Positions 2,551 through 24,109 of a stretch of 64,000 nt of DNA are shown here, one piece after another. The DNA is from a virus. Below the pieces are notes generated by a model. It did no database searches, was not told where the DNA came from, and saw only the letters and a program-made list of their open reading frames with translations. Within the stretch, counting starts at the first letter, position 1, and each line of letters starts with the position of its first letter. The DNA is taken from the IMG/VR virus record IMGVR_UViG_3300037245_003482, positions 10,015 to 74,014 of that record; one strand, given 5' to 3'. Made by a program: the position numbers and the translations under genes.

Positions 2551-2710
2551 CGCCTTCCTTAAACATGCTCTGCTGATCTACCCCTTCGGTTATATCAGGC
2601 ACATCCATTCTTTTGGCACATACAGAGCCCATGCCCAATGCGCGGCTTTCTGCTGTTTTCAGTGGCCGTTTGCACACTGTGCATTTATCATACTGTGGTA
2701 ATTTCTTCAT
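2540..2710 (-). CDS. DUF6011-like small Zn-binding protein
   Basis: CTVCKRPLKTAESRALGMGSVCAKR matches the CxxCxRxLxxxES...GxGxxC pattern. Confidence 0.75.
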   Translation of the reverse strand: MKKLPQYDKCTVCKRPLKTAESRALGMGSVCAKRMDVPDITEGVDQQSMFKEGDDE

Positions 2711-3194
2711 GATGTACAACTCCATAGTCTGCAATTAATAGTGCATCACCCCTGCCATCCTTTGCACCGCCCCGTGGGCCATATAATTCTTTTTCAATTG
2801 TGGGGTATTTGGCAGCAGCTTTGGCGCATGAATCTTTTTTACTTTTGCCCCATAGCCCAGCATGCCTTTCCCAACGTTGTGCATTCACATGCATAAAAGG
2901 TATATTTTCATTATAGGCAAAAAGTATCACAATACCTTCTGCCTTGCCAATATTTTTACCTTGCTGCATGATACTATTACGGCCTGCATTTGGCCCATTT
3001 GCAATAACATGCTCTGCCCAAATGGCATCTATTGGATGTGTAGTCGAAGCAAGGGAACACAATAAAACATCTATTGCAATTGGGTCTATTTCCTTGTTTT
3101 CAAGTGGCATATCCCACACAAAGCATTCTTTTGTTTCTGTGTCAATTAGGGCAAATGCACCACTAATTCCATAATCAATTCCTAATACCCTCAT
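2688..3194 (-). CDS. ruvC: RuvC-like Holliday junction resolvase
   Basis: MRVLGIDYG...IWAE...DGRGDALLIA, carrying the RNase H-fold acidic residues. Confidence 0.85.
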   Translation of the reverse strand: MRVLGIDYGISGAFALIDTETKECFVWDMPLENKEIDPIAIDVLLCSLASTTHPIDAIWAEHVIANGPNAGRNSIMQQGKNIGKAEGIVILFAYNENIPFMHVNAQRWERHAGLWGKSKKDSCAKAAAKYPTIEKELYGPRGGAKDGRGDALLIADYGVVHHEEITTV

Positions 3195-7785: not shown

Positions 7786-8020
7786 GCAAACCATCCTTTT
7801 TTTCTAAAAGGGTACAAATGCCCTCTATTGTTTTACACGATTCTTGCCACTCTTCATCTGTTATTTCATAGTCATATTCATCTTCTACAGCCATGGTAAT
7901 TTGTATTTCATCCATACTGTCAGCCCCAATTTCTGTGAGCGTTTGCTTTTCTTCTAGGCCAGAGGGTGAAACACCCAATACAAGGCCTATAATCTCTTTT
8001 ACTTTTTCTAAATGCTTCAT
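7778..8020 (-). CDS. acpP: acyl carrier protein
   Basis: 80 aa, acidic. VKEII...LGV...IGADSMDEIQITMAVEDEYDYEITDEE contains the phosphopantetheine-accepting Ser motif. Confidence 0.85.
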   Translation of the reverse strand: MKHLEKVKEIIGLVLGVSPSGLEEKQTLTEIGADSMDEIQITMAVEDEYDYEITDEEWQESCKTIEGICTLLEKKDGLHG

Positions 8021-8667: not shown

Positions 8668-8824
8668 ATGCAATTGCCTTTTGTTCAGTAAAGGGTCTTC
8701 TTTCCCTAAATTCCGATTGTTTCCCTGGGTTAAAATTTGCCACAGGTCTATGGTATCCCATTACTCTAGTCCAAATTTCACATTTAGTTCTTTCAGTATC
8801 ATTAAGTATAATTGCCACACCCAT
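8645..8824 (-). CDS. stand-alone glycyl-radical domain of class III ribonucleotide reductase (NrdD C-terminal / NrdDb-like), 59 aa
   Basis: Below the ORF-track cutoff. Hand translation: MGVAIILNDTERTKCEIWTRVMGYHRPVANFNPGKQSEFRERRPFTEQKAIAYGKDFNN, with the RVMGY glycyl motif and N.GK.SE..ER. TAATG coupling to the upstream gene. Confidence 0.9.
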   Translation of the reverse strand: MGVAIILNDTERTKCEIWTRVMGYHRPVANFNPGKQSEFRERRPFTEQKAIAYGKDFNN

Positions 8825-9318
8825 TAAAATAACCCGCCACCAGTTTTTATTTCTTTTATTCCTGGTATGGAGGCCATTTTTGGCTGTGTAATTACAACTG
8901 CCTTCTCCCCCTTATTATACACAGTTTTAGGCATAACAATAGGTTTTTCTGCTTTTTCTATATCAAAGGGTAAATCTTCAGGCCCACCATTTATGTACCC
9001 ACGCTCCTTTATCCTATACCTTATGGTTTTTTCCATTTCACCACTTTTAACTTTTGCCTTTATGAATATTTCTGTGTTTTCAAATAAGGTGCTTTTCTTG
9101 TAAAAAGCAAGGCCTATTACAAAAGTAGTAGTTTTTTCGTATGCCAGGTAGGTTCCCCCCTGTTTCCGTATAAAGAAGCAGAAGCCTTGGCACTCAAATT
9201 CCTCATCCAGTTCATCAGGGGGTAATGGTACTGTTTCCCACATAACCCCACGGATACCTTTCCGTTCTTCCCTTAGTTCTTTACTACGTGTGCCACTAAC
9301 AAATTTCATTATGTTCAT
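8824..9318 (-). CDS. hypothetical protein ending in GGGLF
   Basis: ORF with a GGAG RBS, directly after the polymerase. Confidence 0.65.
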   Translation of the reverse strand: MNIMKFVSGTRSKELREERKGIRGVMWETVPLPPDELDEEFECQGFCFFIRKQGGTYLAYEKTTTFVIGLAFYKKSTLFENTEIFIKAKVKSGEMEKTIRYRIKERGYINGGPEDLPFDIEKAEKPIVMPKTVYNKGEKAVVITQPKMASIPGIKEIKTGGGLF

Positions 9319-9330
9319 GTAATTACTCCA

Positions 9331-11964
9331 TTATACAGGGTTGCTGTTTACATCAAATTTTACCATTTTGGCCCAGCTTCCCCCCACTTCTGTCATTTCA
9401 CCCTCAAGTACCAATGGCACAATAATCCAGGGCCAGCGTTCCATTACGCCCTCTACACCCCAATAGCGTGAAATCCTATTGACTTCATTTTCTTCACCTG
9501 CATAAACTTTGAATGCAAATTCATCATGTATTTCCCATGCAAGTGTGCTGCGCAGGCCCTCTTCCTTTACTTCCTTGGCTGCCTGTGCCATTGACCACAA
9601 TTTCACATGGCTTGCAGGGCCCTGTGTTTTCCAGTTGCAAAATTCAGTATAACCAAAAGGGCCTGTATATCTGCACCCATTAAGCGTATCAGTGTACCCA
9701 TCTATTTGGAACTTATCCCAATCTTCTTCCCTTAGGTCTTTATATTCAGGGAACCATTCCCCCCAATACCATTCATATTTGGCAATAACATGCTTTAAAA
9801 ACACTTTTGGGTCATCCCACCCTTTTTCCCTAAAATACTCCCACATAAGCGGAATAAGCTTACAATGCTTATAAAGGCTGGGGGCAATACTAAAAGGGCT
9901 TGCCCCATAAATACCAGGAAATACAGCATCACTTTTGGTATTTTGGCGCACCACACCACGTATAATTTTGCCATCGTATTCTGTTTCCTCCATTAAAGAA
10001 ACAAAATCATCCTGTAAATCAAATAAATTATGGGTCCAATCCCAGTGCATGTCGCTTTTTAAATCACTTGCATAGGCCAACCAGTTTTTATCTGGGTAAT
10101 TACATGCAGCAATCATTGTTTCAAGTGCTTTGTAATCCCAGGCCATAAAGCGGTAATCATCACCCGGTTTAATGCAGCTGCGTATTATGTTTTTAATTTT
10201 GGTATTGTGCTTTGGTACATTTTGGGCATTTGGGTTGCTGCTGTTACCTCGCAGTGTTACTGTAAGCAGTTTATAATATGGGTGCACTTTGCCGTCAACG
10301 CATTCATGCAGGTACCCATCCAAATAAGTACCTACTATTTTTTCAAGCTTCTTAATTTCCAGTATTTCATTGGTGAATGGGTGGTTCATTTTTTCCATTA
10401 CTTCAATATCAAGGGCCTGTTTCCCGCTTTTGCCACTGCCCGCCTGTTTTTTATCTACATTTTTAAGCCCTAATGTAGTGTACACATGCTTGTAGAAATT
10501 GTTTCCACTGGTGGTTCCATCCCAACCAAGGCCAAATTCACCTTTTTTGAGTGCTTCCAGTCGTTCTTTTATTTCATGCTCAATATCAACTTTTTGGTTT
10601 ATGGCATGTTCAACATCAAATAATTGCCCCTGTATGTGCAATTCGCTTAAAGCTTCCATTTGCCCATCAAGGAGGAAATCAAAATCAAGATGAGGGTGTG
10701 CAGCAAACCATGCCTGTTGCTTTTTACGTAGTTTCCTACACCAGAAACTATCTAATGCACAATAATGGTACAGTTTGTCTTTTGGTGCATCCTGTATGCG
10801 GTTGAACCCGTTTTCATCTTTTTCCCCTTCCCCTTCTAAATAATGGGCAATATCCTCATCATAATTAAGTACCCCAAAATGCTTATATACAAGGTACTTT
10901 TGCCCGCATGGTTTTTGGTTATGGATCATGTGTTCCGCAAGCAGGGTGTCCCAGGCCCAATTTACCACTTTGTATTGTTCCCCCATGTAACCTGCACGGA
11001 AATACACCCAACGGTCTTCAAATGGGTCATTATGGGCCACTTTGCCAATTTCATCATTGGTCATTACTTTCTTAAATGCTGCACAGAATTTCTCATTTTG
11101 TATAAAAAATGGCATGCACACACTTTCTTTATGATCAGCAATAGAAACACATTCGATAAAATGCCCTTCTGCCTGTGGTTTTAAGCCGCTGGTTTCAAAG
11201 TCAAATTCAATAAGTGCTTTACTGCCTGCCCAAAAATCATGCATAATATCCAGGTATTCTATGGCATCTTCTACATCCCAAATTATACGGGTGTCTTTTT
11301 CCTTTGGTTCATTATTTGGAAATTCATAATTTTCTGCAGTCGCCTTTGCCACAGCATTTTCAATGTCACGTTCAAAATTAAGCACTGTTACCGGGTCCAC
11401 TTTTTTATTCTTTTTGTTCATTGTTCTGTGGATTTCATGGGGGCTATATGTGGGGCAGAGCCATGCCTTTAATTGTTGATCAGGTATTGTTTCACTGTAA
11501 AAAGCATTATATGGGGTTCCATTTAGGCGCCCTGTAAGCCTGCTGTTTATTACGCCACGTGTTGCAGCACGGCCTAATAATATAACCACACGGGGCTTTA
11601 ATTGCTTAATTTCACGTAGTATATTGGGACTGCACTGGCCAATAGCAATATCGTTGGAATTAGAATCAGGGCACCTGCACCGTACAGCAGTTGTTACCCA
11701 GCAATCTTTTTCAATATGGCAATTAAATTTGCGTAAGGTGTCTTTCAGCCTGCGGAAACTATCTTCCTCTGAAAGCAATAACCCAGAAATATCATCAGCT
11801 GCACTTGGGGTATCAGTTACAATTAAAATACCCTTTTTGCCCTGCCCTTGTGCTTTTATTTTTGGATGTTTGGCATTATACTGGTGGTTGCAACCTTCAC
11901 ACCCTTGGGCAAAGGGACCTTTCTTTTTTGCGCCTGTACTTGTGGGGGTTGTGAAAAGTGGCAT
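9331..11964 (-). CDS. polA: family A DNA polymerase with N-terminal family-4 UDG-like domain and 3'-5' exonuclease (SPO1-type architecture)
   Basis: UDG-like region CEGC...AVRCRCP...IKQLKPRVVILLGR...CPTYSP; exonuclease FDFETSG, HN, YCALD; polymerase motifs DYKALE, RQNTK...FPGIYG and IHDE. Confidence 0.92.
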   Translation of the reverse strand: MPLFTTPTSTGAKKKGPFAQGCEGCNHQYNAKHPKIKAQGQGKKGILIVTDTPSAADDISGLLLSEEDSFRRLKDTLRKFNCHIEKDCWVTTAVRCRCPDSNSNDIAIGQCSPNILREIKQLKPRVVILLGRAATRGVINSRLTGRLNGTPYNAFYSETIPDQQLKAWLCPTYSPHEIHRTMNKKNKKVDPVTVLNFERDIENAVAKATAENYEFPNNEPKEKDTRIIWDVEDAIEYLDIMHDFWAGSKALIEFDFETSGLKPQAEGHFIECVSIADHKESVCMPFFIQNEKFCAAFKKVMTNDEIGKVAHNDPFEDRWVYFRAGYMGEQYKVVNWAWDTLLAEHMIHNQKPCGQKYLVYKHFGVLNYDEDIAHYLEGEGEKDENGFNRIQDAPKDKLYHYCALDSFWCRKLRKKQQAWFAAHPHLDFDFLLDGQMEALSELHIQGQLFDVEHAINQKVDIEHEIKERLEALKKGEFGLGWDGTTSGNNFYKHVYTTLGLKNVDKKQAGSGKSGKQALDIEVMEKMNHPFTNEILEIKKLEKIVGTYLDGYLHECVDGKVHPYYKLLTVTLRGNSSNPNAQNVPKHNTKIKNIIRSCIKPGDDYRFMAWDYKALETMIAACNYPDKNWLAYASDLKSDMHWDWTHNLFDLQDDFVSLMEETEYDGKIIRGVVRQNTKSDAVFPGIYGASPFSIAPSLYKHCKLIPLMWEYFREKGWDDPKVFLKHVIAKYEWYWGEWFPEYKDLREEDWDKFQIDGYTDTLNGCRYTGPFGYTEFCNWKTQGPASHVKLWSMAQAAKEVKEEGLRSTLAWEIHDEFAFKVYAGEENEVNRISRYWGVEGVMERWPWIIVPLVLEGEMTEVGGSWAKMVKFDVNSNPV

Positions 11965-11997
11965 AAAATTTCCTGTTTTTAAAATATGTAATAAAAT

Positions 11998-12037
11998 GGC
12001 TGCTGCCTAAGAGATATCTCTGCGCGGGGCAGCAGCC
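11998..12037 (-). terminator. GC-rich hairpin between clamp and polymerase genes (possible terminator or attenuator)
   Basis: 10-bp GGCTGCTGCC/GGCAGCAGCC stem enclosing the palindrome GAGATATCTC. Followed by ATTTTA on the minus strand. Confidence 0.5.
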
Positions 12038-12066
12038 CACAAATATACTTATATGGTTATTTGTGT

Positions 12067-13209
12067 TTATTCAGGGTCGCTTAAGTTGCATATAAGGTGC
12101 CTGTAATGTTCTGCTTCAAACAGCAACACTGTAACAGGCCCTTCCCCACCCTGTATTTCAGTAACCCAGAAATCCTTTGATTTTGTGTATATGTCATGCA
12201 GAAAATCAGTGGGGTATAGGCAACTAAAACCTTCTTTGATTTTAATTCCATCTGTAGGCCAATCAAGGGCTTCTTCACTGGTGCTGTCCTTACTTTGGGA
12301 GCTTATCATCAAATGTTTTTCTGTAAACGAAAGTTTCACAAAATACAATGAAGCATTGCCATCCTTGCCACTGCTTTTTGCACTCATAATACCCACACGT
12401 TTAATTGCATCCGGGAAACCTATTGGCAATGTGCCTGCAACAGAATCTTCCTTTTTTTCCAGGCTTGCAAAGTTTTGCAAAAATGGTACAACTTGCTTGG
12501 ATGGTTCAATAGCCAATAGTGTGCAACTGAATATTGTGCCCTCAGTTGTTTTAAAATGAACCCAAACATCTTTTTCAACTTCACCATCACTGTTGGTGTG
12601 GCATTTGGTGTAATGGGTAAATTTTTCATCCAGTTTAAGCAGCTGGCTTGTATTCTGCAGGCTAATCCAAAAATTAGCAATTTCGCCATCGTCATCCAGT
12701 AATGGGGTTTCAAAGGTGTAAATATTTGAGCGCATTGCATCCGTGCTGTACACATGGTTATCATCAAAAATTGTACCTGCATATGACTCTTTAGCATTAT
12801 CAGAAATTTCACACAGCTGCAGGGCCTCTTGAAAATCTGCGGGCAGTTCAATACTGGGGTTAATATTATGTAATTCAGTTACATATTCAGGGGTGGCTAT
12901 TTCTGTAATCCAGGACAATGTTGATTTATTGCGGCCACATTTAATAACCAGCCCTTTTTCACTTGTTTCCAGTGTTATATCATTGGACTTGAAACTTTGT
13001 ACAAGTTTAAAGAATTTTTCACCAATAATTGCCCCTGAAATACCCTCTGTGTCTATTTTAACACTGGCACAAATTGTACCATTGAATGTATGGAGGGCAC
13101 CATCACCAAAAATAATGGTGTCAGCACCTGCCAGGGTGTTTTTGCCTTTTACAATACCAGGCATTACTTTTTTAATAGCACTAAGAAGTGCTGATTTTTC
13201 GATTTGCAT
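12067..13209 (-). CDS. DNA polymerase sliding clamp (beta-clamp-like)
   Basis: 380 aa. MQIEKSALLSAIKKV, TFNG and STDAMR resemble the three DnaN repeat domains. Adjacent to the polymerase, with a clamp loader nearby. Confidence 0.75.
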   Translation of the reverse strand: MQIEKSALLSAIKKVMPGIVKGKNTLAGADTIIFGDGALHTFNGTICASVKIDTEGISGAIIGEKFFKLVQSFKSNDITLETSEKGLVIKCGRNKSTLSWITEIATPEYVTELHNINPSIELPADFQEALQLCEISDNAKESYAGTIFDDNHVYSTDAMRSNIYTFETPLLDDDGEIANFWISLQNTSQLLKLDEKFTHYTKCHTNSDGEVEKDVWVHFKTTEGTIFSCTLLAIEPSKQVVPFLQNFASLEKKEDSVAGTLPIGFPDAIKRVGIMSAKSSGKDGNASLYFVKLSFTEKHLMISSQSKDSTSEEALDWPTDGIKIKEGFSCLYPTDFLHDIYTKSKDFWVTEIQGGEGPVTVLLFEAEHYRHLICNLSDPE

Positions 13210-13646
13210 TACTGCTCCTTTTGATTTTTGTTTCTACTTATTTGTTCGTGGTCTAAGTTTGCTTCAGACCTAAATGTTCTAGTTTTTCCCAGCCCATAAT
13301 TATGGTTATCCGTTACAATTTTTCTGGAATCTAAGTCTTCTAGGGCAGCCAAAGCTACGGCTGCTGTTTGAATCAATTCGGTTCTATAATTAGCCCTGCA
13401 CCTTTTGTAAGTTTCTAAGGAACTATAACCCCCTGAATCCTTATAAGCTTTTTTAGTGAATTCCATTTCGCAGACTTCTTTGCATACCTCCCCATATTCC
13501 TCACCAAGTATACACATCCAAAATGAGGGCTCATGGTTTTGAACCCCCCATTTTTCATCCTGTTTTTGGCGTTCCCCTTTTACTTCATTTATAATATCAT
13601 TTTGCCGTATGGCTCTTTTATACTCATTCATATTTGCATCCCCCAT
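13209..13646 (-). CDS. MazG-like NTP pyrophosphohydrolase
   Basis: ERQKQDEKWG...ILGEEYGEVC...ELIQTAAVA. Confidence 0.8.
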   Translation of the reverse strand: MGDANMNEYKRAIRQNDIINEVKGERQKQDEKWGVQNHEPSFWMCILGEEYGEVCKEVCEMEFTKKAYKDSGGYSSLETYKRCRANYRTELIQTAAVALAALEDLDSRKIVTDNHNYGLGKTRTFRSEANLDHEQISRNKNQKEQ

Positions 13647-14470
13647 TATACAGAAACCTGCCCTTTGATTGCTGGGTGGTGCTTATACCCAATCAACTCA
13701 AAATCCTCATAGGTAAATTCATCAATATCTTTTATTGCAGGGTTTATTTTCATGGTGGGCAATGGCAGTGGCGCCTTGCATAATTGTTCATCAACTTGTT
13801 GTAAGTGATTGTTATAAATATGGGCATCACCAAAGGTGTGGATGAAATCACCAACTTCTAAATCACATACCTGTGCAACCATCATGGTAAGTAGGGCATA
13901 GGAGGCAATATTGAACGGTGTACCCAAGAACATGTCAGCAGAACGCTGGAACATTTTACAACTTAATTTACCATTTAGCACATAAAATTGGAAAAAACTG
14001 TGGCATGGGGGTAGTGCTGCTTCTTCAATTTCACCCGGATTCCAGGCTGTAACAATAAGTCTACGGCAATCTGGTTTGGTTTTTATGCGTTCAATTACAT
14101 TTGCAAGCTGGTCAATAAGCTTATCCTGGCCTGGGGGGCAATCTGAAGCATAATACATGGGGGGTTCCCATAAACGCCATTGTTTTCCATATACAGGCCC
14201 TAAATCGCCATTTTCGTCGGCCCATTGGTCCCAAATATGCACCCCATTATCATTAAGGTACTTAATATTTGTGGCCCCTGAAATAATCCAAAGCAATTCA
14301 TGTATAATGCCTTTTAGGAACATCTTTTTGGTTGTTACCAACGGGAACCCCTTGGAAAGATCAAAGCGCATTTGTGGCCCAAACATGCTTATTGTGCCTG
14401 TTCCTGTGCGGTCACCCTTTTGGGCGCCTTGTTCCTTGATTTCTTTTAATAAACGTAAATATTGTCTCAT
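13646..14470 (-). CDS. thyA: thymidylate synthase
   Basis: [40 protein letters not shown] and DAHIY. Confidence 0.97.
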
Positions 14471-14488
14471 TGTTTCCTCTTTGTTGTT

Positions 14489-14866
14489 TTAAAATATAAC
14501 ACCTTTTTCTGTAAGCTGTTCAGCAATAATACCCCAATCAGATATGTGCATTAAATTTTTATCATCAATGTAAATATCTGCACTTATTTTGCGGCAATCC
14601 ACACCATATTCCCTTATTTTACTTGGTAAATTTGTGTTAATATAATGGTGGTGTACATCCATTTCCTCCAGGAACTTTTCAACATCCCCCATGGTGCCAC
14701 CTACTCTGCAGGTGTTAATTATAATAAAATGCCCTGCTCTGTACAGTTTATTGATAACATTTTTTGCCATTGGTAATATTGGGCCAATTTCTGGGTATTT
14801 GTCTTCTGCTATTGTACCATCAAAATCAATTGCAATTACAAACCGTTTATATTCGTGCATTTTCAC
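14489..14866 (-). CDS. HAD-superfamily phosphatase
   Basis: IAIDFDGT...NTCR...KISADIYIDDKN. Confidence 0.85.
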   Translation of the reverse strand: MKMHEYKRFVIAIDFDGTIAEDKYPEIGPILPMAKNVINKLYRAGHFIIINTCRVGGTMGDVEKFLEEMDVHHHYINTNLPSKIREYGVDCRKISADIYIDDKNLMHISDWGIIAEQLTEKGVIF

Positions 14867-14869
14867 CCC

Positions 14870-15550
14870 TTAAAAAAGTCCCCATGAATTGGCCTTGATC
14901 CTTGTTTTTGATGTGGCAAACCACTCTTCCCCTATTTCTATACCCAGAAATTTACGTTGTGTGTCTTTGGCTGCCACCCCTGTTGTGCCACTCCCCATAA
15001 ATGGATCAAAAATAATATCACCTGGGGAACTAAATTTAGTAATTAAATGGGCAATTAGTGGCACTGGTTTCTGTGTTGGATGGAGTGCATTTTGAGTTCT
15101 TGGGTACCTCATTATATTTGGGGTTCTTTTTCCATTTATTGCACGCTGGCCTTTTTGGGCAAATATAATAAATTCACATTGGGGAGCAAAATCATGCTTT
15201 AAATCGCCCATACCTGGTTGACCTTTGTCCCATATAAGTATATTTTTAAGAACAAAAACTTTTTCGATTATTTTTTTGAACTCATCAATTTTATGCCAAC
15301 TACAGAAAAAATAGTGCCCCGTGTTGGGCTTTGCAACCCTATAGCATTGATTTATGAACTCTGGGAGCCAGTCAAGATTATCATCATTGGCTATTTTTGC
15401 ATGCTTTTCCTTTCTCATTCCCGATTGATAGTCCATACCATAAGGGGGATCTGTGCATATCATATCAACAGAAGCTGGTTTCATGCTTTTTATATAATCA
15501 AAAGAATCCCCATTAACTAAAGTATATGAATTACCAGTAACTGTTTCCAT
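14870..15550 (-). CDS. DNA N4/N6 methyltransferase (beta class)
   Basis: TDPPY, HPTQKP and DPFMGSGTTG. Confidence 0.92.
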   Translation of the reverse strand: METVTGNSYTLVNGDSFDYIKSMKPASVDMICTDPPYGMDYQSGMRKEKHAKIANDDNLDWLPEFINQCYRVAKPNTGHYFFCSWHKIDEFKKIIEKVFVLKNILIWDKGQPGMGDLKHDFAPQCEFIIFAQKGQRAINGKRTPNIMRYPRTQNALHPTQKPVPLIAHLITKFSSPGDIIFDPFMGSGTTGVAAKDTQRKFLGIEIGEEWFATSKTRIKANSWGLF

Positions 15551-16227
15551 TATTCCACCTTTTTAGGTATTTGGTTAGGGTCACTTAAATCAAATCCCAT
15601 GAAATTAAACTCCCCTTTTATTCTTTGCTTCAAAGCTACAAAATAATCAGGATCTAGTTCAAACCCCACAAATTCCCCACTTTTCTGGAATCTTTCCCAT
15701 GCTATTGCATGTGATCCTGATCCTAAATGTGTATCTAATATTTTGAAATCAGGTTTTGCATAGTTTTGGAGTAACCAGGAATAAAGGGCAACTGGTTTTT
15801 GTGTTGGATGAATCCGAACCTTATCTGCCCCAACAATTCTTTTTTTATAAATTTTAGCTGGTGAATTAAATGAAGTCCATGCAAATTCACACATTGCCAT
15901 TGTGAATTTTTCTGGTTGTACTTTATCCCAAACTAAAAAGCAGGGCATTGGGAAAAGATGTTCAATCATATAATTCCCACCCCAGACAATTTGGTTTTTA
16001 GAGACGCGGAAAAGCTCTGCAAAATAGGCTTTATCTGGTATTTTTTCATCTGCGCCTGCAAACTTTTTATAATCCTTTTTGGAATTCCCTACTTTACCAC
16101 CAGCCATACCTATTCCATAAGGTGGGTCCACAATTGCCAAATCAAAATAATTATCTGGGTATTGTGCCATCCCTACCATGCAATCTTGGTTGTAAATTTT
16201 ACGATTGCCTACAATAAATTCATCCAT
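15550..16227 (-). CDS. DNA N4/N6 methyltransferase (beta class)
   Basis: VDPPYG, HPTQKP and DTHLGSGS. Confidence 0.92.
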   Translation of the reverse strand: MDEFIVGNRKIYNQDCMVGMAQYPDNYFDLAIVDPPYGIGMAGGKVGNSKKDYKKFAGADEKIPDKAYFAELFRVSKNQIVWGGNYMIEHLFPMPCFLVWDKVQPEKFTMAMCEFAWTSFNSPAKIYKKRIVGADKVRIHPTQKPVALYSWLLQNYAKPDFKILDTHLGSGSHAIAWERFQKSGEFVGFELDPDYFVALKQRIKGEFNFMGFDLSDPNQIPKKVE

Positions 16228-16253
16228 TTAACACCAAGAGCAAAAAGTACCTA

Positions 16254-16403
16254 CCCCTTATATAAAAAGTTGTGCGGGTAACACTTCAAAATAAAAGCCA
16301 ATGTTCAACATTTTCATATAGCCCATGTCCCCTGCAAATAACATCCTAATACTTTTTTAAAAAATAATGCATTAGTTTAAAATATTCCTTTATATAATAG
16401 GGG
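16254..16403. promoter_or_regulatory. divergent control region: TATATAAGGGG (minus, 16254-16264), T6A6 box (16353-16364), TATAATAGGGG (plus, 16393-16403)
   Basis: Both repeated motif classes occur at the strand switch between the two gene arms. Confidence 0.75.
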
Positions 16404-16418
16404 TACAAAGGAGTATTT

Positions 16419-17423
16419 ATGGGTTTATTTAACGATTGTGAAGATTTGCAGGAAACTTTTGAGTGGATTGTCGATGTGTCTAAAACATGCAACAACATAT
16501 ATAAAAAGGCATGCGAAGAAAATAAGGAACTTGCTGCTGCAATGGATGTACCATTTACTGTGCCCACTTCTGGGATGACAAAATGGGTCAAAACATTCAA
16601 TGAATTAGTTGCCAAATTGGTAAAGGGCAATAAAGCTGCTTTTAATACAAAAGAACACTTGAACAAGGGGCAAGACATACAGGACCTTTTTGACCATGAT
16701 CGACCAAGTGTATTAGGTGTAATTGAACACTTGGCCAGAAAATACACAAAGGCCCGTATTACACCTGGGTACAGAAAAGGTATTACACCTAAAAAAATCA
16801 ATTTGGCCCATTTTATTTACACAGACTTCCCCCCATTTTTAGCCCAGCAGAATTTTTCACTTGCATTATATTGGCTTAACACTGAAGCACCAGGCACCCC
16901 AGATGAAAAATTCCACCAGGCACTTTATACCCTAAATAAATGTGGGGTGCATGATTACGTTATAACCCCCTTTATCATTTTATTAGGGGAACAAAACACA
17001 AACACACAAAGGGCCCGTTTACTTGACAGTATATTGCTATTTGTTTCTTGGTATGAAAAAATGAAAGCCAGTTTCAGTGTTAAAAATTATACACCACCAG
17101 GCTGGTTCTATGTTGGTACAGCTGAAAAATTTATAAAAATGTTTTATGAGTACATTTGTGATATTTGGGGGGGCGACTTTGTGGTATTCCCCAAACCAGT
17201 TACAGATGACCCAGAAAAATCATTATTCAGAAATTACCTCGAGTGGCTTAAACTTAATTTTAGTGTTGATTTTTTCCCAAAGGAACAAACAAAATTTGTA
17301 CCCCGTGTAACCCCCAATTATAAGCAGACAAAGGAAGAACTGCGCCTGAAGGTTACAGATCACCAAAAATGGCGTGCAGAAGTAATGCCCAAAATAACAG
17401 CTGCTGGGTATTCTCAGGAATAA
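16419..17423 (+). CDS. hypothetical protein, 334 aa (starts MGLF)
   Basis: Long ORF with an AAGGAG RBS after the promoter motif. Confidence 0.75.
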   Translation: MGLFNDCEDLQETFEWIVDVSKTCNNIYKKACEENKELAAAMDVPFTVPTSGMTKWVKTFNELVAKLVKGNKAAFNTKEHLNKGQDIQDLFDHDRPSVLGVIEHLARKYTKARITPGYRKGITPKKINLAHFIYTDFPPFLAQQNFSLALYWLNTEAPGTPDEKFHQALYTLNKCGVHDYVITPFIILLGEQNTNTQRARLLDSILLFVSWYEKMKASFSVKNYTPPGWFYVGTAEKFIKMFYEYICDIWGGDFVVFPKPVTDDPEKSLFRNYLEWLKLNFSVDFFPKEQTKFVPRVTPNYKQTKEELRLKVTDHQKWRAEVMPKITAAGYSQE

Positions 17424-17429
17424 ATTTTA

Positions 17430-17474
17430 TTTTTTAAAAAAGTGTTTGCATTTCCTTTTGCTTTTTGTTATTTT
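17430..17474 (+). promoter_or_regulatory. sigma70-like promoter with T6A6 upstream box
   Basis: TTTTTTAAAAAA-GTGT-TTGCAT-17 nt-TATTTT. Near-identical copy at 42415-42459. Confidence 0.7.
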
Positions 17475-17507
17475 GAATTATAAGGAATTAAGGAACTGAG
17501 GAAAACA

Positions 17508-17882
17508 ATGACTACTGGGAATAAAACAACAACAGAAGCACCTAAAAAATACCTGTATACAAATGGAAGATGGGGTTTGCGAAGATATTTAATAGCAAGA
17601 GAAACCGCTAAAACTTATTTTTTATATATCAATGAGGTATATGAAGAACCTGTTAGAAAAAATAAAATGAGTACAGGTACGGGTTGGCACGTTTCTTCTT
17701 ATAAAGAAGAAACCCCTGAACTTTTAGCATTATGGAATAAGGCTATTTTAAGTGCAAAAGCTAAGGAAGCCTGTGATTATTTTATAGGGCATGTTAACAA
17801 ATTAAGTGGAGAGTTGCAAAATCAGTTGATTGAATTGGCTGAAAGCCATAAGGATGCACATGCATCTATGGAAAGGGGTTAA
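17508..17882 (+). CDS. hypothetical early protein
   Basis: ORF with a GAGG RBS after the promoter. Confidence 0.65.
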   Translation: MTTGNKTTTEAPKKYLYTNGRWGLRRYLIARETAKTYFLYINEVYEEPVRKNKMSTGTGWHVSSYKEETPELLALWNKAILSAKAKEACDYFIGHVNKLSGELQNQLIELAESHKDAHASMERG

Positions 17883-17883
17883 T

Positions 17884-18507
17884 ATGAAACAATCACAACA
17901 CACTGAAAATGTAGAAGATTACATGGGCATGATACATAAGGCCGTTAAAAAAGTAAAACCAAGTGAAGCCCTTTACCAGGACCTGGTATCTGAGGGTATT
18001 TTGATTTTTTATACAGCGCTCAAATGCTTTGATGAAACCAAAGGGGCCAAATTCAGTACCCATTTAACCATACACCTGCAGCAGCTCTTCAACCGTTATT
18101 GGTACAAATACCAGGATAAGGCCTATTTGTTCAAATATAATAAGCAGCAAACTGCCTACAGTGGCCATTATGTTAATGGGGGTGACTGTGGGGGAGAGCG
18201 TGCGGACATGGATTTTGTACAGGAACCTGTTGACGAAAACCAAAGGATGGATCTTGCTTTATTGTACACTGAACTAACACCTGATGCAAAGCACCTGCAT
18301 ACAGTAATTACATCAGGCACCTTAGTTGCAGAGTTTGGCAAACAACTACGCCTGACCATTACCAACCTGCTTAAAATAGTAGAAGAATGGGGTTGGGACA
18401 GCACACGCCTAAAAGCTGCATTAATTGATTTACGTGAATTCATATATGAAATGTTTGAAAACACTGTGGAATTAGACACATTGGGCTATAAGCACAATAA
18501 ACTATAA
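17884..18507 (+). CDS. sigma-factor-like protein (region 2 recognisable, region 4 not evident)
   Basis: YQDLVSEGILIFYTALKCFDETKGAKFSTHL. Confidence 0.75.
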   Translation: MKQSQHTENVEDYMGMIHKAVKKVKPSEALYQDLVSEGILIFYTALKCFDETKGAKFSTHLTIHLQQLFNRYWYKYQDKAYLFKYNKQQTAYSGHYVNGGDCGGERADMDFVQEPVDENQRMDLALLYTELTPDAKHLHTVITSGTLVAEFGKQLRLTITNLLKIVEEWGWDSTRLKAALIDLREFIYEMFENTVELDTLGYKHNKL

Positions 18508-18516
18508 AGGAGACAT

Positions 18517-19065
18517 ATGTCTTATTACATAACGAACCCGGGCAGTGATTCTGCTGAAAAAATTGAAGCCCTTTTTAAAGAATACCAAAAATGCAGGGTA
18601 CAAAGGCACAAGTTTGCAAAAGAACTTGGGGCCACAGATTACCTTGTAAGCCATCATTTCACTGAACGTGGTATTAGTGGTTTCCGTTTTGCTTCTAAAA
18701 AAGGCATATACTGCATCAATGATGAACTAAAAGCCAAAGAAGACGGAAAAGTACCTAAGGGGCTGCGTTTCGACAGAAAATTGGGTGCTTGGGTTCTTGC
18801 ATTAAAAACAGCTGAAGGTAAATTACTGCAATCAAAACTTAGAGCATTGCCAAAAGTAATACCAGGTAAAGCACGGCTGCTGCTTTCCACCACAGACAAC
18901 CCAGATTTAAATATTGGTGAAATAAAACGCATTGTTAAAAAGTGCCCTGTAAAAAGCTTAAGGGGCGGTTTTACCTTTATAACTGGCCTTTTTTCTAAAG
19001 GTGAAGTACCAAAAGATTGCAGGCCAATAAAAAAATCACGTTATTATTACCTTTTAGGTGAATAA
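18517..19065 (+). CDS. basic hypothetical protein
   Basis: ORF with an AGGAG RBS. Confidence 0.65.
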   Translation: MSYYITNPGSDSAEKIEALFKEYQKCRVQRHKFAKELGATDYLVSHHFTERGISGFRFASKKGIYCINDELKAKEDGKVPKGLRFDRKLGAWVLALKTAEGKLLQSKLRALPKVIPGKARLLLSTTDNPDLNIGEIKRIVKKCPVKSLRGGFTFITGLFSKGEVPKDCRPIKKSRYYYLLGE

Positions 19066-19101
19066 ATAGTAACACATTACTTTTAATATTGTATACTTAC
19101 T

Positions 19102-19650
19102 GTGAGTGGCAGAAGTAATTACCTGCACACAAAACACTCGCTCTTTTGGTAATGGGAGGGGGGGCAACCCCCCTAATCTTTCCTAATGAGGGCGGGCGAC
19201 CCATTATCATAAAATTGGAAAACCCCATTTTTATGTGTTGAATAAACTTTGTACGCTCTACATATACGCCCATTAGAAACTGGGGCCCTTAATACCAGTT
19301 TTAACCGTTCTGCAACCCCTGATGGCAACTGAAAGGGGCTCGAAATGCCTTACGTGCGTCCTTTTGTATTATGCATTTGAAACAAGGGCCCAGGCGGAGC
19401 AGGGTATGAACCAGGCCGTCGAAACTCGAGGGGCAGCCCTGGGACCCACATTGCTGGGGAAAATGTATCAAACGCGCGCTGTCCCAACAAATGACACCTG
19501 TACAATGGGCAACCATTGACTAGGCTATATTGTAGGTTGTGAAGTCAGTAAAGAGGGCCACAGTGCAAGCAAATGCACTAATCGATATAGAGCATCCAAT
19601 AGAATACACTAAAAGTGGGACCTAGGCGTACAGTCTAGGAAAACTCCGCC
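19102..19650 (+). ncRNA. candidate large structured non-coding RNA
   Basis: 700-bp gene-free gap, CpG-richer than its flanks, with consecutive hairpins (GCAA loops, G-U pairs). TATACT -10 at 19092-19097. Confidence 0.55.
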
Positions 19651-19767
19651 AAATTCCTAAAAGTAAAGTATATATACCTATGTCTCTTATGTTCCTATGT
19701 TACTTTGTATTGCGGGGGTGGGGGGTTATCATTATAACTTTTTATAATAGGGGTAGGAGGATATTTT

Positions 19768-20674
19768 ATGACTAGAATTGGAATGATAGGTTTTGCAAAT
19801 GCCTTGGGCCTCGGTGCAGCAGAGCCTAATGCAATCAGGATATTAATGGACCTACGGTTCAAATGTGTTAAGGCAGGCTATGATATCCCAGAAATTAATA
19901 ATATACCTGGGCCACATGCTGTGGCAAAATTAGCATGGTTACGCAACCACATTGCAGAATTTAAAATAGAGGTTGAATAATGCTTTTTGCCAAATTAACA
20001 TGCACCAAGGACACTACATCTGGGGTAAGCCAATATGGGCGTGTTTATTACCACCCAATAAACCTTGTCACAGAAATTTCATTTGGAAGAGTTAATAGTG
20101 AATTAGGCAGAATACCTGGGCAATCTGTATTGCATATTGGGGCTGGTCCTGAGGAGTACAACTTAGACTATTTCAAATTGGAATGGGTTGATGAAAGTGT
20201 TATGTGCAAAGAAACAAATGGGTACGGGGGTGTAATATGAAATGGTACCTGATTTATGATAAAACAAATGTAAAAAAGGGTAAAAAATACCTGGTAAAGG
20301 CTGCTAATTGGTATGATGCTGCAGATTATATAAGGGACCTAAACAGAAAAGCAGGCTTCCCTCCCCATGTTAATTTTGTTATCAAAGGCGTTACAAATGC
20401 CCTTGTGCCGTTTTTAAAAGAGTGTATTGATTTTGATACTAGAGGCATAAAAGTAGTAAGTGCCCCAGAAGCACCAAAAAAGGTATTCACAGATGAATAC
20501 CTTGAATCAGAAATACTGGGTTTAAAGGCCATAGTGGACGATACAATGCAGGGCGCCCCCGATAACCTTAAAGATGGTATATTGGAATCATTAACAGCCC
20601 AGACACGTGCCACATTTGAAACAATGCAGAAATTAGAACAAGAAAGAATTGACGAGAGGGGTAGTAATACCTAA
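19768..20674 (+). CDS. three coupled hypothetical genes (19768-19980, 19980-20240, 20237-20674)
   Basis: TAATG and ATGA overlaps, following the promoter motif at 19743-19753. Confidence 0.65.
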
Positions 20675-21576
20675 TGTTTGATGTTTTAAAACTACTAAAG
20701 GATTACAGAATCCAGTACAGGCAGGACAGTTCTGGGTGGCTTAATATCTGTTGCCCCTTTAGGCTCAACCATAAAGGTGGGGATACAAAATACTTTGGTG
20801 GCTTTGATTTACGTACAGGTGGGTATAATTGTTGGTCGTGTCAAGGTGTTTCAAACCATAAGGTAATTGCGGAACTACTGAACATCAGCAATGGGGAAGC
20901 ATTTGGCTTACTGCAAGGGTATGGTGGTGGTGTGTATATGCAGTACCATAAGGAAAAACGCCAAAATGCCACAATTATGCAAATGCCAGGGGCACAGGAA
21001 CCACGCCCCCAACACACAAAATATATTGAAGGCCGTGGGTATGATTTCAAACACCTCACTGAAAAATACATGTTGCATTTTACCCATGGGGGTGATGAAC
21101 CCAAATGGCGCCAAAGGGTAATTATACCTATTACCTATGGGCACCGTGTAGTTGCCTACCAGGGCCGGGATGTAATAGACCGTGGGCCAAAAGACCGTTG
21201 GATGAGTGCCACACCCGAAGAAAGCCTGATGCATTATAAGGATGTTATCTATGGAATTGATGATTGGCACAGTAAAACCGTGGGGGTTGTGGAGGGCGCT
21301 TTTGACGTGTTCCGCATGGGTAAGGGGATATGTACCGGGTTTGGTAGTGCACTTACAGACAGCCAGGTAACAAAGCTTGCTGAACGCTTTAACAGGGTTG
21401 TATTCTTATTTGACCCAGGTGATGAACTTGCATGGGCCAAAGCAGGGAAGCATATGTTGGAATTAAAAAGCATGGGGGTAAATGCAGAGCGTGTGCGTTG
21501 GGCCTCGAAATTAGATCCAGATGAACTGGGTTTTAAAGAATGTCGAATACTTAAACACCAATGCGGGATAAAATAA
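20674..21576 (+). CDS. DNA primase (Zn finger plus TOPRIM)
   Basis: CCPF...CWSC, RVIIPI...YQGR, VVEGAFD, FLFDPGD and LDPDEL. Confidence 0.9.
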   Translation: MFDVLKLLKDYRIQYRQDSSGWLNICCPFRLNHKGGDTKYFGGFDLRTGGYNCWSCQGVSNHKVIAELLNISNGEAFGLLQGYGGGVYMQYHKEKRQNATIMQMPGAQEPRPQHTKYIEGRGYDFKHLTEKYMLHFTHGGDEPKWRQRVIIPITYGHRVVAYQGRDVIDRGPKDRWMSATPEESLMHYKDVIYGIDDWHSKTVGVVEGAFDVFRMGKGICTGFGSALTDSQVTKLAERFNRVVFLFDPGDELAWAKAGKHMLELKSMGVNAERVRWASKLDPDELGFKECRILKHQCGIK

Positions 21577-21929
21577 TGGAAAAAACATATACCAATGAAG
21601 AGTACAAAAAGGTATTAAAGCCTTATAAAGAAATAAAAAAACTAAAGGCACAATTAAGTAGACTTGCCATTATAATGCAAAGGCAGATCATTATGCTACA
21701 ACATGCACAAGCTGGTATAGATTTCCTTATGTGTGAAGAATTTGATAATTTTAACAATAACATAGTAACACTAAGGCAAATTTGCCTTTTACCAATGCAA
21801 ATGGGGCGCCCAGTAATGAAGCCCCATGCAAAAGAACTTGCTGCAATGCAAAAATATTGCAAATTACGTGTTAAAATGCTACAGCGTGAAATTGCTAAAT
21901 GGCAGAAAAAGAAAAGGTTCCCAAAATGA
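21576..21929 (+). CDS. hypothetical helical protein
   Basis: TAATG-coupled ORF. Confidence 0.6.
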   Translation: MEKTYTNEEYKKVLKPYKEIKKLKAQLSRLAIIMQRQIIMLQHAQAGIDFLMCEEFDNFNNNIVTLRQICLLPMQMGRPVMKPHAKELAAMQKYCKLRVKMLQREIAKWQKKKRFPK

Positions 21930-22315
21930 GCCTTTTTAACACAACCCCTAAAGTAAGTGAATTAGAACAAGTACGCTGCATTATAGCTGGTGGGCGTGAT
22001 TTCACAGATGCTACTATATTATGGAAAAAGTGCTTTGAGTTATTTGTATTAGGTAGGTTTTTAGATACCATTGAAATAATAAGTGGTGGGGCAAAAGGGG
22101 CTGATAAATTAGGTGAAAAATTTGCAAGGGTGCATAAAATTAAAATAAAGAAGTTCCCAGCTCATTGGCAAATTTTTGGCCCTGCAGCTGGTGCCATTCG
22201 TAATGCTGAAATGGCAGAGTATGCCAATATGTTAATTGCATTCTGGGACGGTAAAAGCAGGGGCACAGCACACATGATTGAAACAGCCCGTAAAAAAGCC
22301 TTATTGTGTATGTAG
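21926..22315 (+). CDS. YspA/DUF2493-type SLOG family protein
   Basis: IIAGGRDF, ISGGAKGAD, AAGAIRNAEMA and AFWDGKSRGT. Confidence 0.85.
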   Translation: MSLFNTTPKVSELEQVRCIIAGGRDFTDATILWKKCFELFVLGRFLDTIEIISGGAKGADKLGEKFARVHKIKIKKFPAHWQIFGPAAGAIRNAEMAEYANMLIAFWDGKSRGTAHMIETARKKALLCM

Positions 22316-22345
22316 TAAACTATTAACTTTTTATAATATGGGTGT

Positions 22346-24109
22346 ATGGCAACAGTTGATTTAAATGATAGGTGGGCAAGAATAACTGAAGGTAAAATAC
22401 AGTTATTTTCACCCTATGACCAGGAAATGGTTGATGATATTCGGAAACGTAATAGGAATATGCGTCTACGCCCACCGGGTACTGATTTAGTATGGGCATG
22501 GTGTGCAGCAGCAGGTTGCTGGGAGTGCCCTGATATACCTGAAAACCGTGAACTAATAGATGAGCCACTATATGCCTTTGATATTGAGGGTGACGGCCCA
22601 GAATTTGACGAAAATCCAATGGACAAACCATGGCTCAAATTAGACCTTGGTAAAATAATGGGGGCAAATGGGCTTCCACCTTGGGATTTCCAATATGAAT
22701 GCCTGCAGTTCCTTATGTGGCGCCACGGACGGGGCTTTCTTGGCCTTGACATGGCATTGGGTAAGAGTATAATTGCTGCCCTCTTCTGTAAGATGAAACG
22801 GGCACACATGCCATCAATTATTATATGCCCCAGCACATTAAAATTACAATGGGCAAAATATTGGGGTGAATGGGTAGGTGCCCCGGTTACCATATTAAGT
22901 GGTAGGAAAGGCAGGCCACTGGAGCGTGGTATGACCTACATAATTAATTGGGATATACTTGGGTACCGAAAAGAAGAAAAAAAGCAAATAATGAAGCATG
23001 GCAGGGAAGTAACCCAAACAGTGAAAGTTGTGCAAAAAGACAGTTGGTTTTATTTCATAAAGCAGGCAGGGTTTAAAACTACAATTGCGGATGAAATACA
23101 ATACTGCAACAATGTTGATACTGTGCGTGGAAAAGCCCTTAAGGAAATAGCGCAGGCAATACCTAATTTTATCCCTTTAAGTGGTACACCAATAAAAACT
23201 AAACCAAGCCAATTTTGGTTACCATTACACCTATGTGATGACAGCAGGTTCCCAAAGCTTTCTACATTTAAGCGTAAATTTTGCAAATTAGAACATACAG
23301 GGTATGGCGAAAAAGAGTTACCTGGGTGCAAAGATCCCAAAGTATTACATAATGCAATAAAAAATGTAATGATACGGTTCCGTAAAGAAGATGTACTTAA
23401 AGACTTACCACTTAAAACACGTGTAATTGTGCCTATGGAAATAGATACTGCTGAATGGAAAAAGCGGGTTGCCCTATTTAAAGAAGAAACAAAGGGGCTT
23501 GATAGAACTAAGGCCATTGCAATTGAAGCAGCAATTAAAACACTTATGAGCAGCGCCTTTGATGTTAAAAAAGACTCTGTTATGGCCTGGCTGGATGAAT
23601 TTAAGGAAATGAACCCAGGTAAGAAATTAGTTATTTTTGCATGGCACCGTGCAGTTGTTGAATACATCCATGAGTATTATAAAAAAGAAAGTGTGTTATA
23701 TTATGGGGGTATGTCCAACCCCCAGAAAGTAAAAAGCTTTGAAACATTTTTAAATGATCCACATTGTATATTTTTTGTGGGGAATGCCCAAAGTGCAGGA
23801 ACAGGCCTTGATGGCATGCAGCACGTGTGCAATACCACAGTATTTATTGAAATAACCCAAAGCCCTGCAGACAGTGACCAAGCAGAGGACAGGGTGGTGC
23901 GCCCCGGGCAATTGAACCCAGTAACATGTTTCTATTTGCCTGCGGATAATACTATTGATATGGATATAATGGAAAATTGGGACTTAAAGCGTGAAATGAT
24001 TGACCAGATAGTTGAAGGCAAGGAAACAAGTGACTGTGATGATTTACTCAGTGCGCTATTCCTGAAGTATGCGGGCCCCATGCAAAACAGTAAAGCAGGT
24101 TTATTTTGA
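22346..24109 (+). CDS. SNF2-family (annealing) helicase
   Basis: DMALGKS, IICP, ADEIQ, LSGTP, AGTGLD and QAEDRVVRPGQ. Confidence 0.9.
   Translation: MATVDLNDRWARITEGKIQLFSPYDQEMVDDIRKRNRNMRLRPPGTDLVWAWCAAAGCWECPDIPENRELIDEPLYAFDIEGDGPEFDENPMDKPWLKLDLGKIMGANGLPPWDFQYECLQFLMWRHGRGFLGLDMALGKSIIAALFCKMKRAHMPSIIICPSTLKLQWAKYWGEWVGAPVTILSGRKGRPLERGMTYIINWDILGYRKEEKKQIMKHGREVTQTVKVVQKDSWFYFIKQAGFKTTIADEIQYCNNVDTVRGKALKEIAQAIPNFIPLSGTPIKTKPSQFWLPLHLCDDSRFPKLSTFKRKFCKLEHTGYGEKELPGCKDPKVLHNAIKNVMIRFRKEDVLKDLPLKTRVIVPMEIDTAEWKKRVALFKEETKGLDRTKAIAIEAAIKTLMSSAFDVKKDSVMAWLDEFKEMNPGKKLVIFAWHRAVVEYIHEYYKKESVLYYGGMSNPQKVKSFETFLNDPHCIFFVGNAQSAGTGLDGMQHVCNTTVFIEITQSPADSDQAEDRVVRPGQLNPVTCFYLPADNTIDMDIMENWDLKREMIDQIVEGKETSDCDDLLSALFLKYAGPMQNSKAGLF

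Follow-up and report, generated by a model that had tools for sequence, protein, structure and literature searches.

A terminal Leu-Phe tag on replication and early proteins of an uncultured phage, with the phage sliding clamp as its probable receptor

Six proteins of an uncultured phage carry the same tag at one extreme end of the chain, a minimal short linear motif that is either G-[L/M]-F at the free C-terminus or [S/P/G]-L-F directly after the initiator Met. The best explanation is that these tags dock on the phage's own sliding clamp, a reading to which we give a probability of about 0.6. The window, i.e. the whole stretch of DNA that was analysed, is 64,000 nt long (IMG/VR record IMGVR_UViG_3300037245_003482, positions 10,015-74,014). 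We found no paper that describes the terminal-LF pattern.

The clade comprises three known phages in sequence databases, being the window's phage and relatives that include G001 and G2; the third relative (L007) was covered over 21.7 kb. With the polymerase-clamp region, blastn found no near relatives among GenBank phages; tblastn against GenBank phages gave no match with the window clamp or with a sister-clade clamp, and polymerase matches among those phages were all at ≤24% identity. There was no match in a first metagenome scan, nor when IMG/VR was scanned with the polymerase alone and with the SNF2 helicase alone. An IMG/VR scan with the clamp pair alignment returned G001 only, and ~1,240 relatives of the window clamp were found.

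The tag and its carriers

The C-terminal form (GLF) is present on a 164-aa protein, an N6/N4 DNA methyltransferase and an SNF2 helicase, and the N-terminal form (M-x-LF) on the family A DNA polymerase, a 334-aa protein and a SLOG protein. All carriers lie in the replication/early module. The six termini read as the first-pass annotation had claimed, the SLOG case depending on a start at 21926. The carriers, followed by two uncertain members, are:

9331-11964, minus strand: family A DNA polymerase with a UDG-like N-terminal domain (Pfam DNA_pol_A, UDG and exonuclease domains); tag M-P-L-F encoded at 11953-11964
8824-9318, minus strand: 164-aa protein directly downstream of the polymerase gene, ending TGGGLF; G-L-F encoded at 8827-8835
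14870-15550, minus strand: N6/N4 DNA methyltransferase, 226 aa (PF01555, E 7e-40; phrog_67, E 6e-67); G-L-F encoded at 14873-14881
16419-17423, plus strand: 334-aa protein; tag M-G-L-F encoded at 16419-16430
21926-22315, plus strand: SLOG (YAcAr) protein (PF10686, E 1e-11); tag M-S-L-F encoded at 21926-21937
22346-24109, plus strand: SNF2-family helicase, 587 aa (PF00176 and PF00271; phrog_62, E 3e-82, to residue 560); G-L-F encoded at 24098-24106
2540-2734, minus strand: small Cys-rich protein (the DUF6011 protein of the first-pass annotation), from a six-frame search; QQSMF and then an acidic tail; uncertain member
14489-14866, minus strand: HAD-like 125-aa protein (phrog_1238, E 3e-29) ending G-V-I-F; uncertain tag variant

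The ending [T/S]GGGLF of the 164-aa protein is common to all three homologs, whose identities by BLAST/alignment are 33-56% (38% and 56% to the window's protein in the alignment), and the linker before the tag is variable, with indels. Its model has a folded domain (residues 1-122) and a tail (123-164) at pLDDT <50. Pfam, PHROGs and Atlas returned nothing usable for this protein, and Foldseek had no match at E ≤0.001. The 334-aa protein, which begins MGLFND in the window, MSLFED in G2 and MSNLFDE in G001, likewise had no Pfam, PHROG or Atlas match; it might be a candidate delta-like loader subunit. A VIA-align fold search with the 164-aa protein reached a Z of 5.1 at best, a value also seen for common arrangements.

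The polymerase begins MPLFTTP in the window and MSLF in both G001 and G2. The end of the SNF2 helicase is SKAGLF in the window, GGMF in G001 and RGMF in G2; the tag is absent from the end of helicase homologs at ≤45% identity. In the N6/N4 methyltransferase, which ends NSWGLF, the domain match stops at residue 213 and is followed by a 13-residue tail ending in GLF. Its neighbour, a second methyltransferase (15550-16227), is untagged. Across the methyltransferases and the helicase, domain matches stop 13-27 residues before the tag, which in these enzymes lies beyond the catalytic domains; the 164-aa protein, the only carrier modelled, has it at the end of a disordered tail. For the SLOG protein we favour the start at ATG 21926, which gives MSLFNTTP, because AAAGG lies 9-13 nt upstream and the gene overlaps the upstream gene by 4 nt; the ORF's first ATG (21899) has no such signal.

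The QQSMF that the first-pass annotation had placed near the C-terminus of the DUF6011 protein is present, six residues from the end and on this protein only, but it is only loosely conserved: the G001 homolog has QLNNTF before its acidic tail and keeps only the Q and the F. The HAD-like protein has no ortholog in G001. No LF was seen at the start or end of structural proteins, which bears out the earlier statement that no structural gene has a terminal motif. The large terminase has the C-terminus G[KR]GLW in both genomes.

Enrichment, sibling phages and a sister clade

In the phage's own genome, three of the 117 ORFs end in GLF where 0.036 would be expected (P 7e-6); judged post hoc, some tripeptide would recur three times at the sampled positions with a probability of ~0.013. 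When each family was counted once across the three clade genomes, the C-terminus was G[LM]F in six unrelated families, where 0.05-0.07 would be expected (P ~1e-10), so that the terminal LF is enriched over background, the first of the checks that had been proposed for it. Across the clade, the LF profile has its maximum at precisely the final two positions of the chain (4.8 versus 0.66).

The second check, conservation in related phages, also came out in favour of the motif, with orthologs keeping the tag down to 33% identity. Furthermore, the DNA methyltransferase that is tagged differs from sibling to sibling, and these enzymes are not orthologous: in the window, the N6/N4 enzyme at its C-terminal end; in G001, a phrog_24333 methyltransferase (adenine-type) at its N-terminal end (MSLFFDP); and in G2, a C5 methyltransferase that ends ALGLF. 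Judged from these sequences, the tag has been gained independently by non-orthologous enzymes of one functional class in sibling phages. A 353-aa and a 53-aa protein are also tagged in G001.

For a sister clade, whose clamps are ~25% identical, the evidence consists of named cases. Its polymerases include six that start with M-x-x-GFF; in its SNF2 helicases, G[LI]F lies 10-15 residues short of the end; and near-terminal [S/T/D]LF is found on methyltransferases, a Mom-family protein and a DUF6884 protein. Several of its methyltransferases have no tag, and its family-weighted positional LF profile had no significant peak.

The phage clamp as candidate receptor

The first-pass annotation held that the phage has its own clamp and loader, and both were confirmed:

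12067-13209, minus strand: beta-type (DnaN-fold) sliding clamp, 380 aa, the proposed receptor (phrog_947 'processivity factor', E 3e-18, full length)
6802-7794, minus strand: AAA+ clamp-loader subunit, 330 aa, RFC-like (phrog_5846 'clamp loader of DNA polymerase', E 1e-51)

On its predicted structure, the clamp is a diverged DnaN-type beta clamp. The AlphaFold2 model (pLDDT 94.1, pTM 0.90) matched DnaN clamps over its whole length in a Foldseek search of the PDB (E 2e-19, TM 0.70-0.74), as expected of a DnaN fold, in which a beta-alpha-beta domain is repeated three times in each chain. Sequence comparisons were less direct: hhalign against E. coli DnaN gave 92.6% probability over residues 3-301, phmmer against PDB clamps gave E 0.02, and identity to cellular clamps is ~14-17%. 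The clamp reaches no Pfam model, and PF00712 had no match in the genome. The dedicated AAA+ loader in the same genome is conserved in G001, L009 and L010.

By alignment of sequence only, the pocket loop T172-D-G-H-R176 of the E. coli clamp corresponds to T156-D157-A-M-R160 of the phage clamp, the C-terminal third of which, containing much of the domain II/III peptide cleft in E. coli, did not align. The T and D of this loop are nearly invariant among 72 members of the clamp family. We rejected a correspondence between E. coli P242 and the Pro that aligns with it in the phage clamp, because G000 and G001 do not share that residue.

[quoted passage not shown] The RFC-like loader would load the clamp, which would then act as a tool-belt that holds the family A polymerase, the SNF2 helicase, DNA methyltransferases and several other proteins on newly made DNA, and the phage DNA would be modified and remodelled whilst it is copied. 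The carriers share what is typical of clamp clients, viz. a short hydrophobic LF-ending motif on a disordered terminus, common to several DNA enzymes. The cleft of the E. coli clamp has been solved with a bare Ac-Leu-Phe dipeptide (Protein Data Bank 4k3l).

No carrier has the complete consensus Q-L-[S/D]-L-F or the hexapeptide QLxLxL, and neither Gln at -5 nor Leu at -4 was seen among the carrier tails (TGGGLF, NSWGLF, SKAGLF, KKGGLF and HALGLF). Since the Q and the first hydrophobic residue of QL[S/D]LF are missing, the tag would fill one subsite and should bind weakly alone. Further points count against docking on the clamp: a tag at either protein end would mean that the chain leaves the cleft in different ways; one of the two window methyltransferases is untagged, as are several in the sister clade; the LF profile of the sister clade is not significant; and the clade itself is known from three genomes only.

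Modelling of the peptides on the clamp had been suggested as a further check, and was run for the tail of the 164-aa protein alone, where it lends weak support. The complex prediction of the clamp with this tail scored 0.57 (best of three controls, 0.01), with the runs agreeing in at least 42% of contacts and a partner pLDDT of at least 39. Of 80 solved complexes, 58 passed the mark used, as did 2 of 110 mismatched pairs; scores of ≤0.60 were those of 7 of the 80 solved complexes and of both mismatches that passed. The pass may also reflect likeness, because clamp-peptide complexes have already been solved.

The annotation had seen in these termini a putative phage-specific docking code for the sliding clamp that would couple methylation to replication. 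Much of this stands: the motif is real, enriched, conserved and independently gained, it lies in the replication/early region, and a clamp and loader are encoded. Docking on this clamp, and the coupling of methylation to replication through it, are what we infer. 'Phage-specific code' was an overstatement, as the tag is the trimmed LF end of the bacterial clamp-binding motif and the sister clade has a related but different form.

Other readers of the tag, and known systems

Something other than a clamp might read the tag: another phage hub (a helicase, the loader or a single-strand binding protein), or a protease or chaperone by which the turnover of early proteins is timed; alternatively, the tag may be a localisation signal. 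A terminal aromatic residue does serve other replisome contacts, and a C-terminal Phe does so in T7 gp2.5, T7 gp4 and E. coli SSB; moreover, the tag is very short and occurs at both termini, and the clamp prediction is weak. Nevertheless, we consider such a reader unlikely. The carriers (polymerase, helicase and DNA-modifying enzymes) are the classic clientele of a clamp; the polymerase is itself tagged and so is not the receptor; we identified no phage protease and no other hub candidate in the module; and LF is the dipeptide of the clamp cleft (4k3l).

A different possibility is that the tags dock on the host beta clamp, instead of or besides the phage clamp, and thereby recruit or compete for the host replication machinery. 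This would suit the form of the tag. The last residues of E. coli Pol II are QLGLF. GLF corresponds to the C-terminal half of the bacterial motif, consensus QL(S/D)LF (PMC9690074), and phage proteins that use the host clamp are known (Mu MuC, PMC12867686; the Gp168-beta-clamp complex 7evp). However, this phage has a clamp and loader of its own, the Q and first Leu of the host-type motif are missing from every carrier, and the form of the tag tracks the clade of the phage clamp, with LF here and FF on the sister-clade polymerases. We therefore regard the host clamp as a rather improbable receptor. That the shared termini are a chance or compositional artefact with no function is very unlikely and receives almost no weight from us: each instance is merely two or three residues, the N-terminal ones hinge on the choice of start codon and the sister-clade profile is not significant, but the family-level P value for C-terminal G[LM]F, the retention of the tag at 33% identity behind a variable linker, its recurrence on non-orthologous methyltransferases in each sibling phage and its absence from structural genes all argue otherwise.

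If the tags do bind the phage clamp, methylation would take place at the fork and precede any encounter of unmodified phage DNA with host restriction enzymes. Terminal G-L/M-F near a phage clamp gene would then be a sequence rule for new replisome partners, which by this rule would include the 164-aa, 334-aa, SLOG, 353-aa and 53-aa proteins, and a family A polymerase would join the users of clamps by way of an N-terminal motif. More tentatively, and with somewhat less confidence than an even chance, G-L-F at either end may serve in this lineage (family A polymerase plus DnaN-like clamp) as a plug-in address that recruits any DNA-modifying enzyme to the clamp, so that siblings could swap anti-restriction chemistry freely and still keep it coupled to replication. 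Methylation at the fork, if the tags bind the clamp, would explain how very different modification enzymes can be exchanged between siblings without loss of protection. Candidates for such an address are adenine and cytosine methyltransferases and Mom-family, DUF6884 and radical-SAM-like proteins.

The closest point of comparison for docking on the phage clamp is the bacterial motif QL[S/D]LF, whose clients include Pol II, Pol III alpha, Pol IV, Pol V, delta, Hda and MutS. Through it, many DNA enzymes compete for the cleft of one DnaN-fold clamp (PMC9690074). Both are short hydrophobic peptides with a Leu-Phe end, usually at a flexible N- or C-terminus, but the phage tag keeps only the last three residues (G-L/M-F), at the absolute terminus. 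In addition, the clamp here is phage-encoded and its putative clientele is a family A polymerase, an SNF2 helicase and DNA methyltransferases.

Phage proteins with a clamp-binding motif or clamp binding are also found in Mu (MuC) and in Twort-like phages (Gp168) (PMC12867686; 7evp); those proteins act on the host clamp, in transcription or inhibition, whereas this phage brings a clamp and a set of tagged enzymes. In T4/RB69, as proposed here, a phage clamp with its own loader is a hub for terminal hydrophobic peptides (the C-terminal peptides of gp43, gp33 and gp55), and a passage in PMC13216743, citing Sommer 2004, has the T4 alpha-glucosyltransferase co-purifying with the gp45 clamp. However, gp45 is a PCNA-like trimer that takes longer peptides, whilst here the clamp is DnaN-type, the family A polymerase is tagged at its N-terminus and the modifying enzymes are methyltransferases. 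Finally, the maintenance DNA methyltransferase Dnmt1 is tethered to PCNA, and new DNA is methylated behind the fork (PMC9690074). The PIP-box is eukaryotic, with the motif Qxx[I/L]xxFF and a clamp of another family, and the tags are not homologous to it; a plug-in address, if true, would be the bacterial-virus counterpart of Dnmt1-PCNA with the smallest possible motif.

Terminal Leu-Phe tags and their placement

The window covers bases 10015-74014 of the 74-kb IMG/VR virus record, for which no near relative was found among GenBank phages. Genes point leftward as far as 16227 and rightward from 16419 on, and the replication module occupies the left arm and the beginning of the right arm. It comprises:

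exonuclease, RuvC-like resolvase and UvsX-like recombinase
6802-7794, AAA+ clamp loader
9331-11964 (-), family A polymerase with an N-terminal UDG-like domain
12067-13209 (-), 'processivity factor' of 380 aa
thymidylate synthase
two N6/N4 DNA methyltransferases
sigma-like protein, primase and SLOG protein
SNF2 helicase and DnaB-like helicase

The termini read in the first-pass annotation are all present: three GLF ends (a 164-aa protein, 8824-9318; a methyltransferase, 14870-15550; the SNF2 helicase, 22346-24109) and three M-x-LF beginnings (the polymerase; a 334-aa protein, 16419-17423; the SLOG protein, 21926-22315). The SLOG tag depends on the ATG at 21926, which follows a ribosome-binding-like AAAGG and gives a 4-nt overlap with the gene before it; the first ATG of that ORF shows neither feature. 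In the whole 74-kb record, GLF ends 3 of 117 ORFs (0.036 expected), and the probability that some tripeptide recurs three times by chance, with its post-hoc choice allowed for, is ~0.013. Enrichment over the proteome background also holds across the three genomes of the clade (this phage and its relatives G001 and G2): counted once per protein family, G[LM]F C-termini occur in six families against 0.05-0.07 expected (P ~1e-10), and the family-weighted LF profile has its maximum precisely on the final two residues (4.8 versus 0.66). As first remarked, no structural protein carries the tag.

The profile matches of the methyltransferases and the helicase end 13-27 residues short of the tag, and AlphaFold2 models the 164-aa protein as a confident domain (1-122) followed by a tail (123-164) at pLDDT <50. 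A tag beyond the domains or on a low-pLDDT tail is typical short-linear-motif anatomy. In every N-terminal case residue 2 is Ser, Pro or Gly, which permits removal of the initiator Met, and we infer that the mature proteins would start [S/P/G]-L-F.

Several other features of the window were recorded. The large terminase (phrog_38; 33780-35258 (+)) ends GKGLW and its G001 counterpart GRGLW; the C-terminus of this packaging enzyme is a conserved Gly-Leu-aromatic, like the replication tag but with Trp for Phe. The polymerase (MPLFTTP, 11941-11964 (-)) and SLOG (MSLFNTTP, 21926-21949 (+)) tags use nearly identical codons, CTT TTY ... ACA ACC CCY, which may reflect duplication or coincidence, the stretch being too short to discriminate. 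An early-region 86-aa ORF (19980-20240 (+)), with no family and no G001 ortholog, begins M-L-F and may be a further carrier or a chance ORF. A TATAATAGGGG element lies at 16389-16418, ~20 nt 5' of the start of the 334-aa gene.

Conservation and independent gain

The collections searched contained only two relatives: G001, a complete 68-kb IMG/VR genome whose clamp is 54% identical to the window's, and G2, a metagenome contig of 68 kb, 21.7 kb of it read (as L007). Proteins P0002, P0004 and P0227, from a 71.9-kb contig, appear to belong to the same phage as G2 or a near-identical one. Orthologs retain the tag, as conservation of the motif in related phages would have it. For the 164-aa protein, the C-terminus is [T/S]GGGLF in each of the three homologs (33-56% identical by BLAST and alignment), with a preceding linker that varies in length and sequence. 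In the window, G001 and G2, respectively, the polymerases begin MPLF, MSLF and MSLF, the 334-aa proteins MGLF, MSNLF and MSLF, and the SNF2 helicases end AGLF, GGMF and RGMF; SNF2 homologs of 45% identity or less have no such C-terminus.

The sibling phages also carry tags on proteins that are not orthologous to one another. In G001, KKGGLF ends both a 353-aa and a 53-aa protein, and a methyltransferase differing from the window's (phrog_24333, E 8e-53) begins MSLFFDP. In G2, a C5 cytosine methyltransferase (PF00145, E 5e-42), its gene inserted between those for SNF2 and DnaB, ends HALGLF. Thus the tagged DNA methyltransferase differs among all three phages, and the tag sits at one end or the other. 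This independent acquisition is the strongest point of the case.

The 53-aa protein (L004:4743-4904, in a G001 locus) is basic, has no family and ends PKKGGLF; being so small, it could be a hub competitor or regulator, not an enzyme. At L004:952-4041, two nearby genes match phrog_13321, the first ending KKGGLF and the second reaching Radical_SAM (Pfam), with a SAM-methyltransferase-like gene between them; these genes may form a DNA hypermodification cassette, itself a carrier of the tag. The G2 thymidylate synthase (L007:3882-5237 (-)) has 451 aa versus 274 in the window, and its Pfam match falls in two separate stretches, suggesting an insertion, for example an intein or a homing endonuclease.

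The candidate receptor

That the phage encodes its own clamp and loader is upheld by a DnaN-fold model for 12067-13209 and the AAA+ loader at 6802-7794. The 380-aa clamp has no Pfam match; it matches phrog_947 across its full length and has ~1,240 relatives in a set of 1.8 billion representative proteins. Its model (72-sequence alignment, pLDDT 94) is a three-domain ring subunit, and its superposition on solved DnaN clamps gives TM 0.70-0.74 (E 2e-19). In a profile alignment with E. coli DnaN (92.6% probability), the pocket loop T172-D-G-H-R176 falls on T156-D157-A-M-R160, of which T156 and D157 are nearly invariant within the family; since the C-terminal third of the clamp failed to align, this check covers only the aligned part of the cleft. 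The structural matches include 4k3l, the E. coli clamp with a bare Ac-Leu-Phe dipeptide, which shows that LF by itself can fill a cellular clamp's cleft.

We ran a single complex prediction, for the clamp and the C-terminal part (120-164) of the 164-aa protein, each supplied as an alignment. Modelling of a tag peptide on the clamp, proposed earlier for every carrier, gave for this one a score of 0.57 against 0.01 for the best of three controls, with contact agreement between runs of at least 42% and partner pLDDT of at least 39, and was graded as weak support; the output named no interface. Of the solved complexes, 58 of 80 reach the mark it passed, as do 2 of 110 mismatched pairs; among the passes at scores of 0.60 or below are only 7 of the 80 and both of the mismatches. 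Because the Protein Data Bank is rich in clamp-peptide complexes, the pass may mirror likeness and not a pair-specific signal.

The tag observation is confirmed as real and functionally meaningful. From comparative inference and this one weak prediction, docking on the phage clamp is its best explanation, and a probable one (roughly 0.6). The tags may instead dock on the host clamp, as Mu MuC uses it (PMC12867686), or on a hub other than a clamp. Alternatively, they may be a turnover signal.

Sister clade and known systems

Clamps ~25% identical to the window's define a sister clade; in 14 IMG/VR loci they occur within the same module, alongside primase, SNF2, DnaB, loader and UDG-fused family A polymerase. 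In this clade, six distinct polymerases start with M-x-x-G-F-F where the window clade has M-x-LF, and the SNF2 helicases place G[L/I]F 10-15 residues before the C-terminus. Helicase-methyltransferase fusions have C-terminal ...[T/Q]SLF[N/G]E..., and two further N6/N4 methyltransferases end KYDLF and KYSLFGDI. Directly upstream of one clamp gene, a Mom-family protein (PF25680, E 7e-33; L008:439-1119) ends FSLFE. At a second locus (L009:8074-12213), genes for QueC, a 281-aa protein without assignment and a DUF6884 protein ending NTLFD closely precede the clamp gene, hinting at 7-deazaguanine DNA modification within a replication operon; an RtcB ligase gene sits between clamp and polymerase. As the overall positional LF profile in this clade is not significant and several of its methyltransferases lack the motif, we treat these cases as supporting anecdote, not proof.

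Diverged viral DnaN homologs have been surveyed previously (PMC3201878), and no description of clamp-type tags on phage methyltransferases turned up in full-text literature searches. T4 offers a known case of a phage clamp used as a hub, its alpha-glucosyltransferase co-purifying with gp45 (PMC13216743), and PCNA carries Dnmt1 (PMC9690074). Compared with the bacterial clamp-binding motif, QL(S/D)LF (PMC9690074), the phage tag is its LF end with the first half missing.
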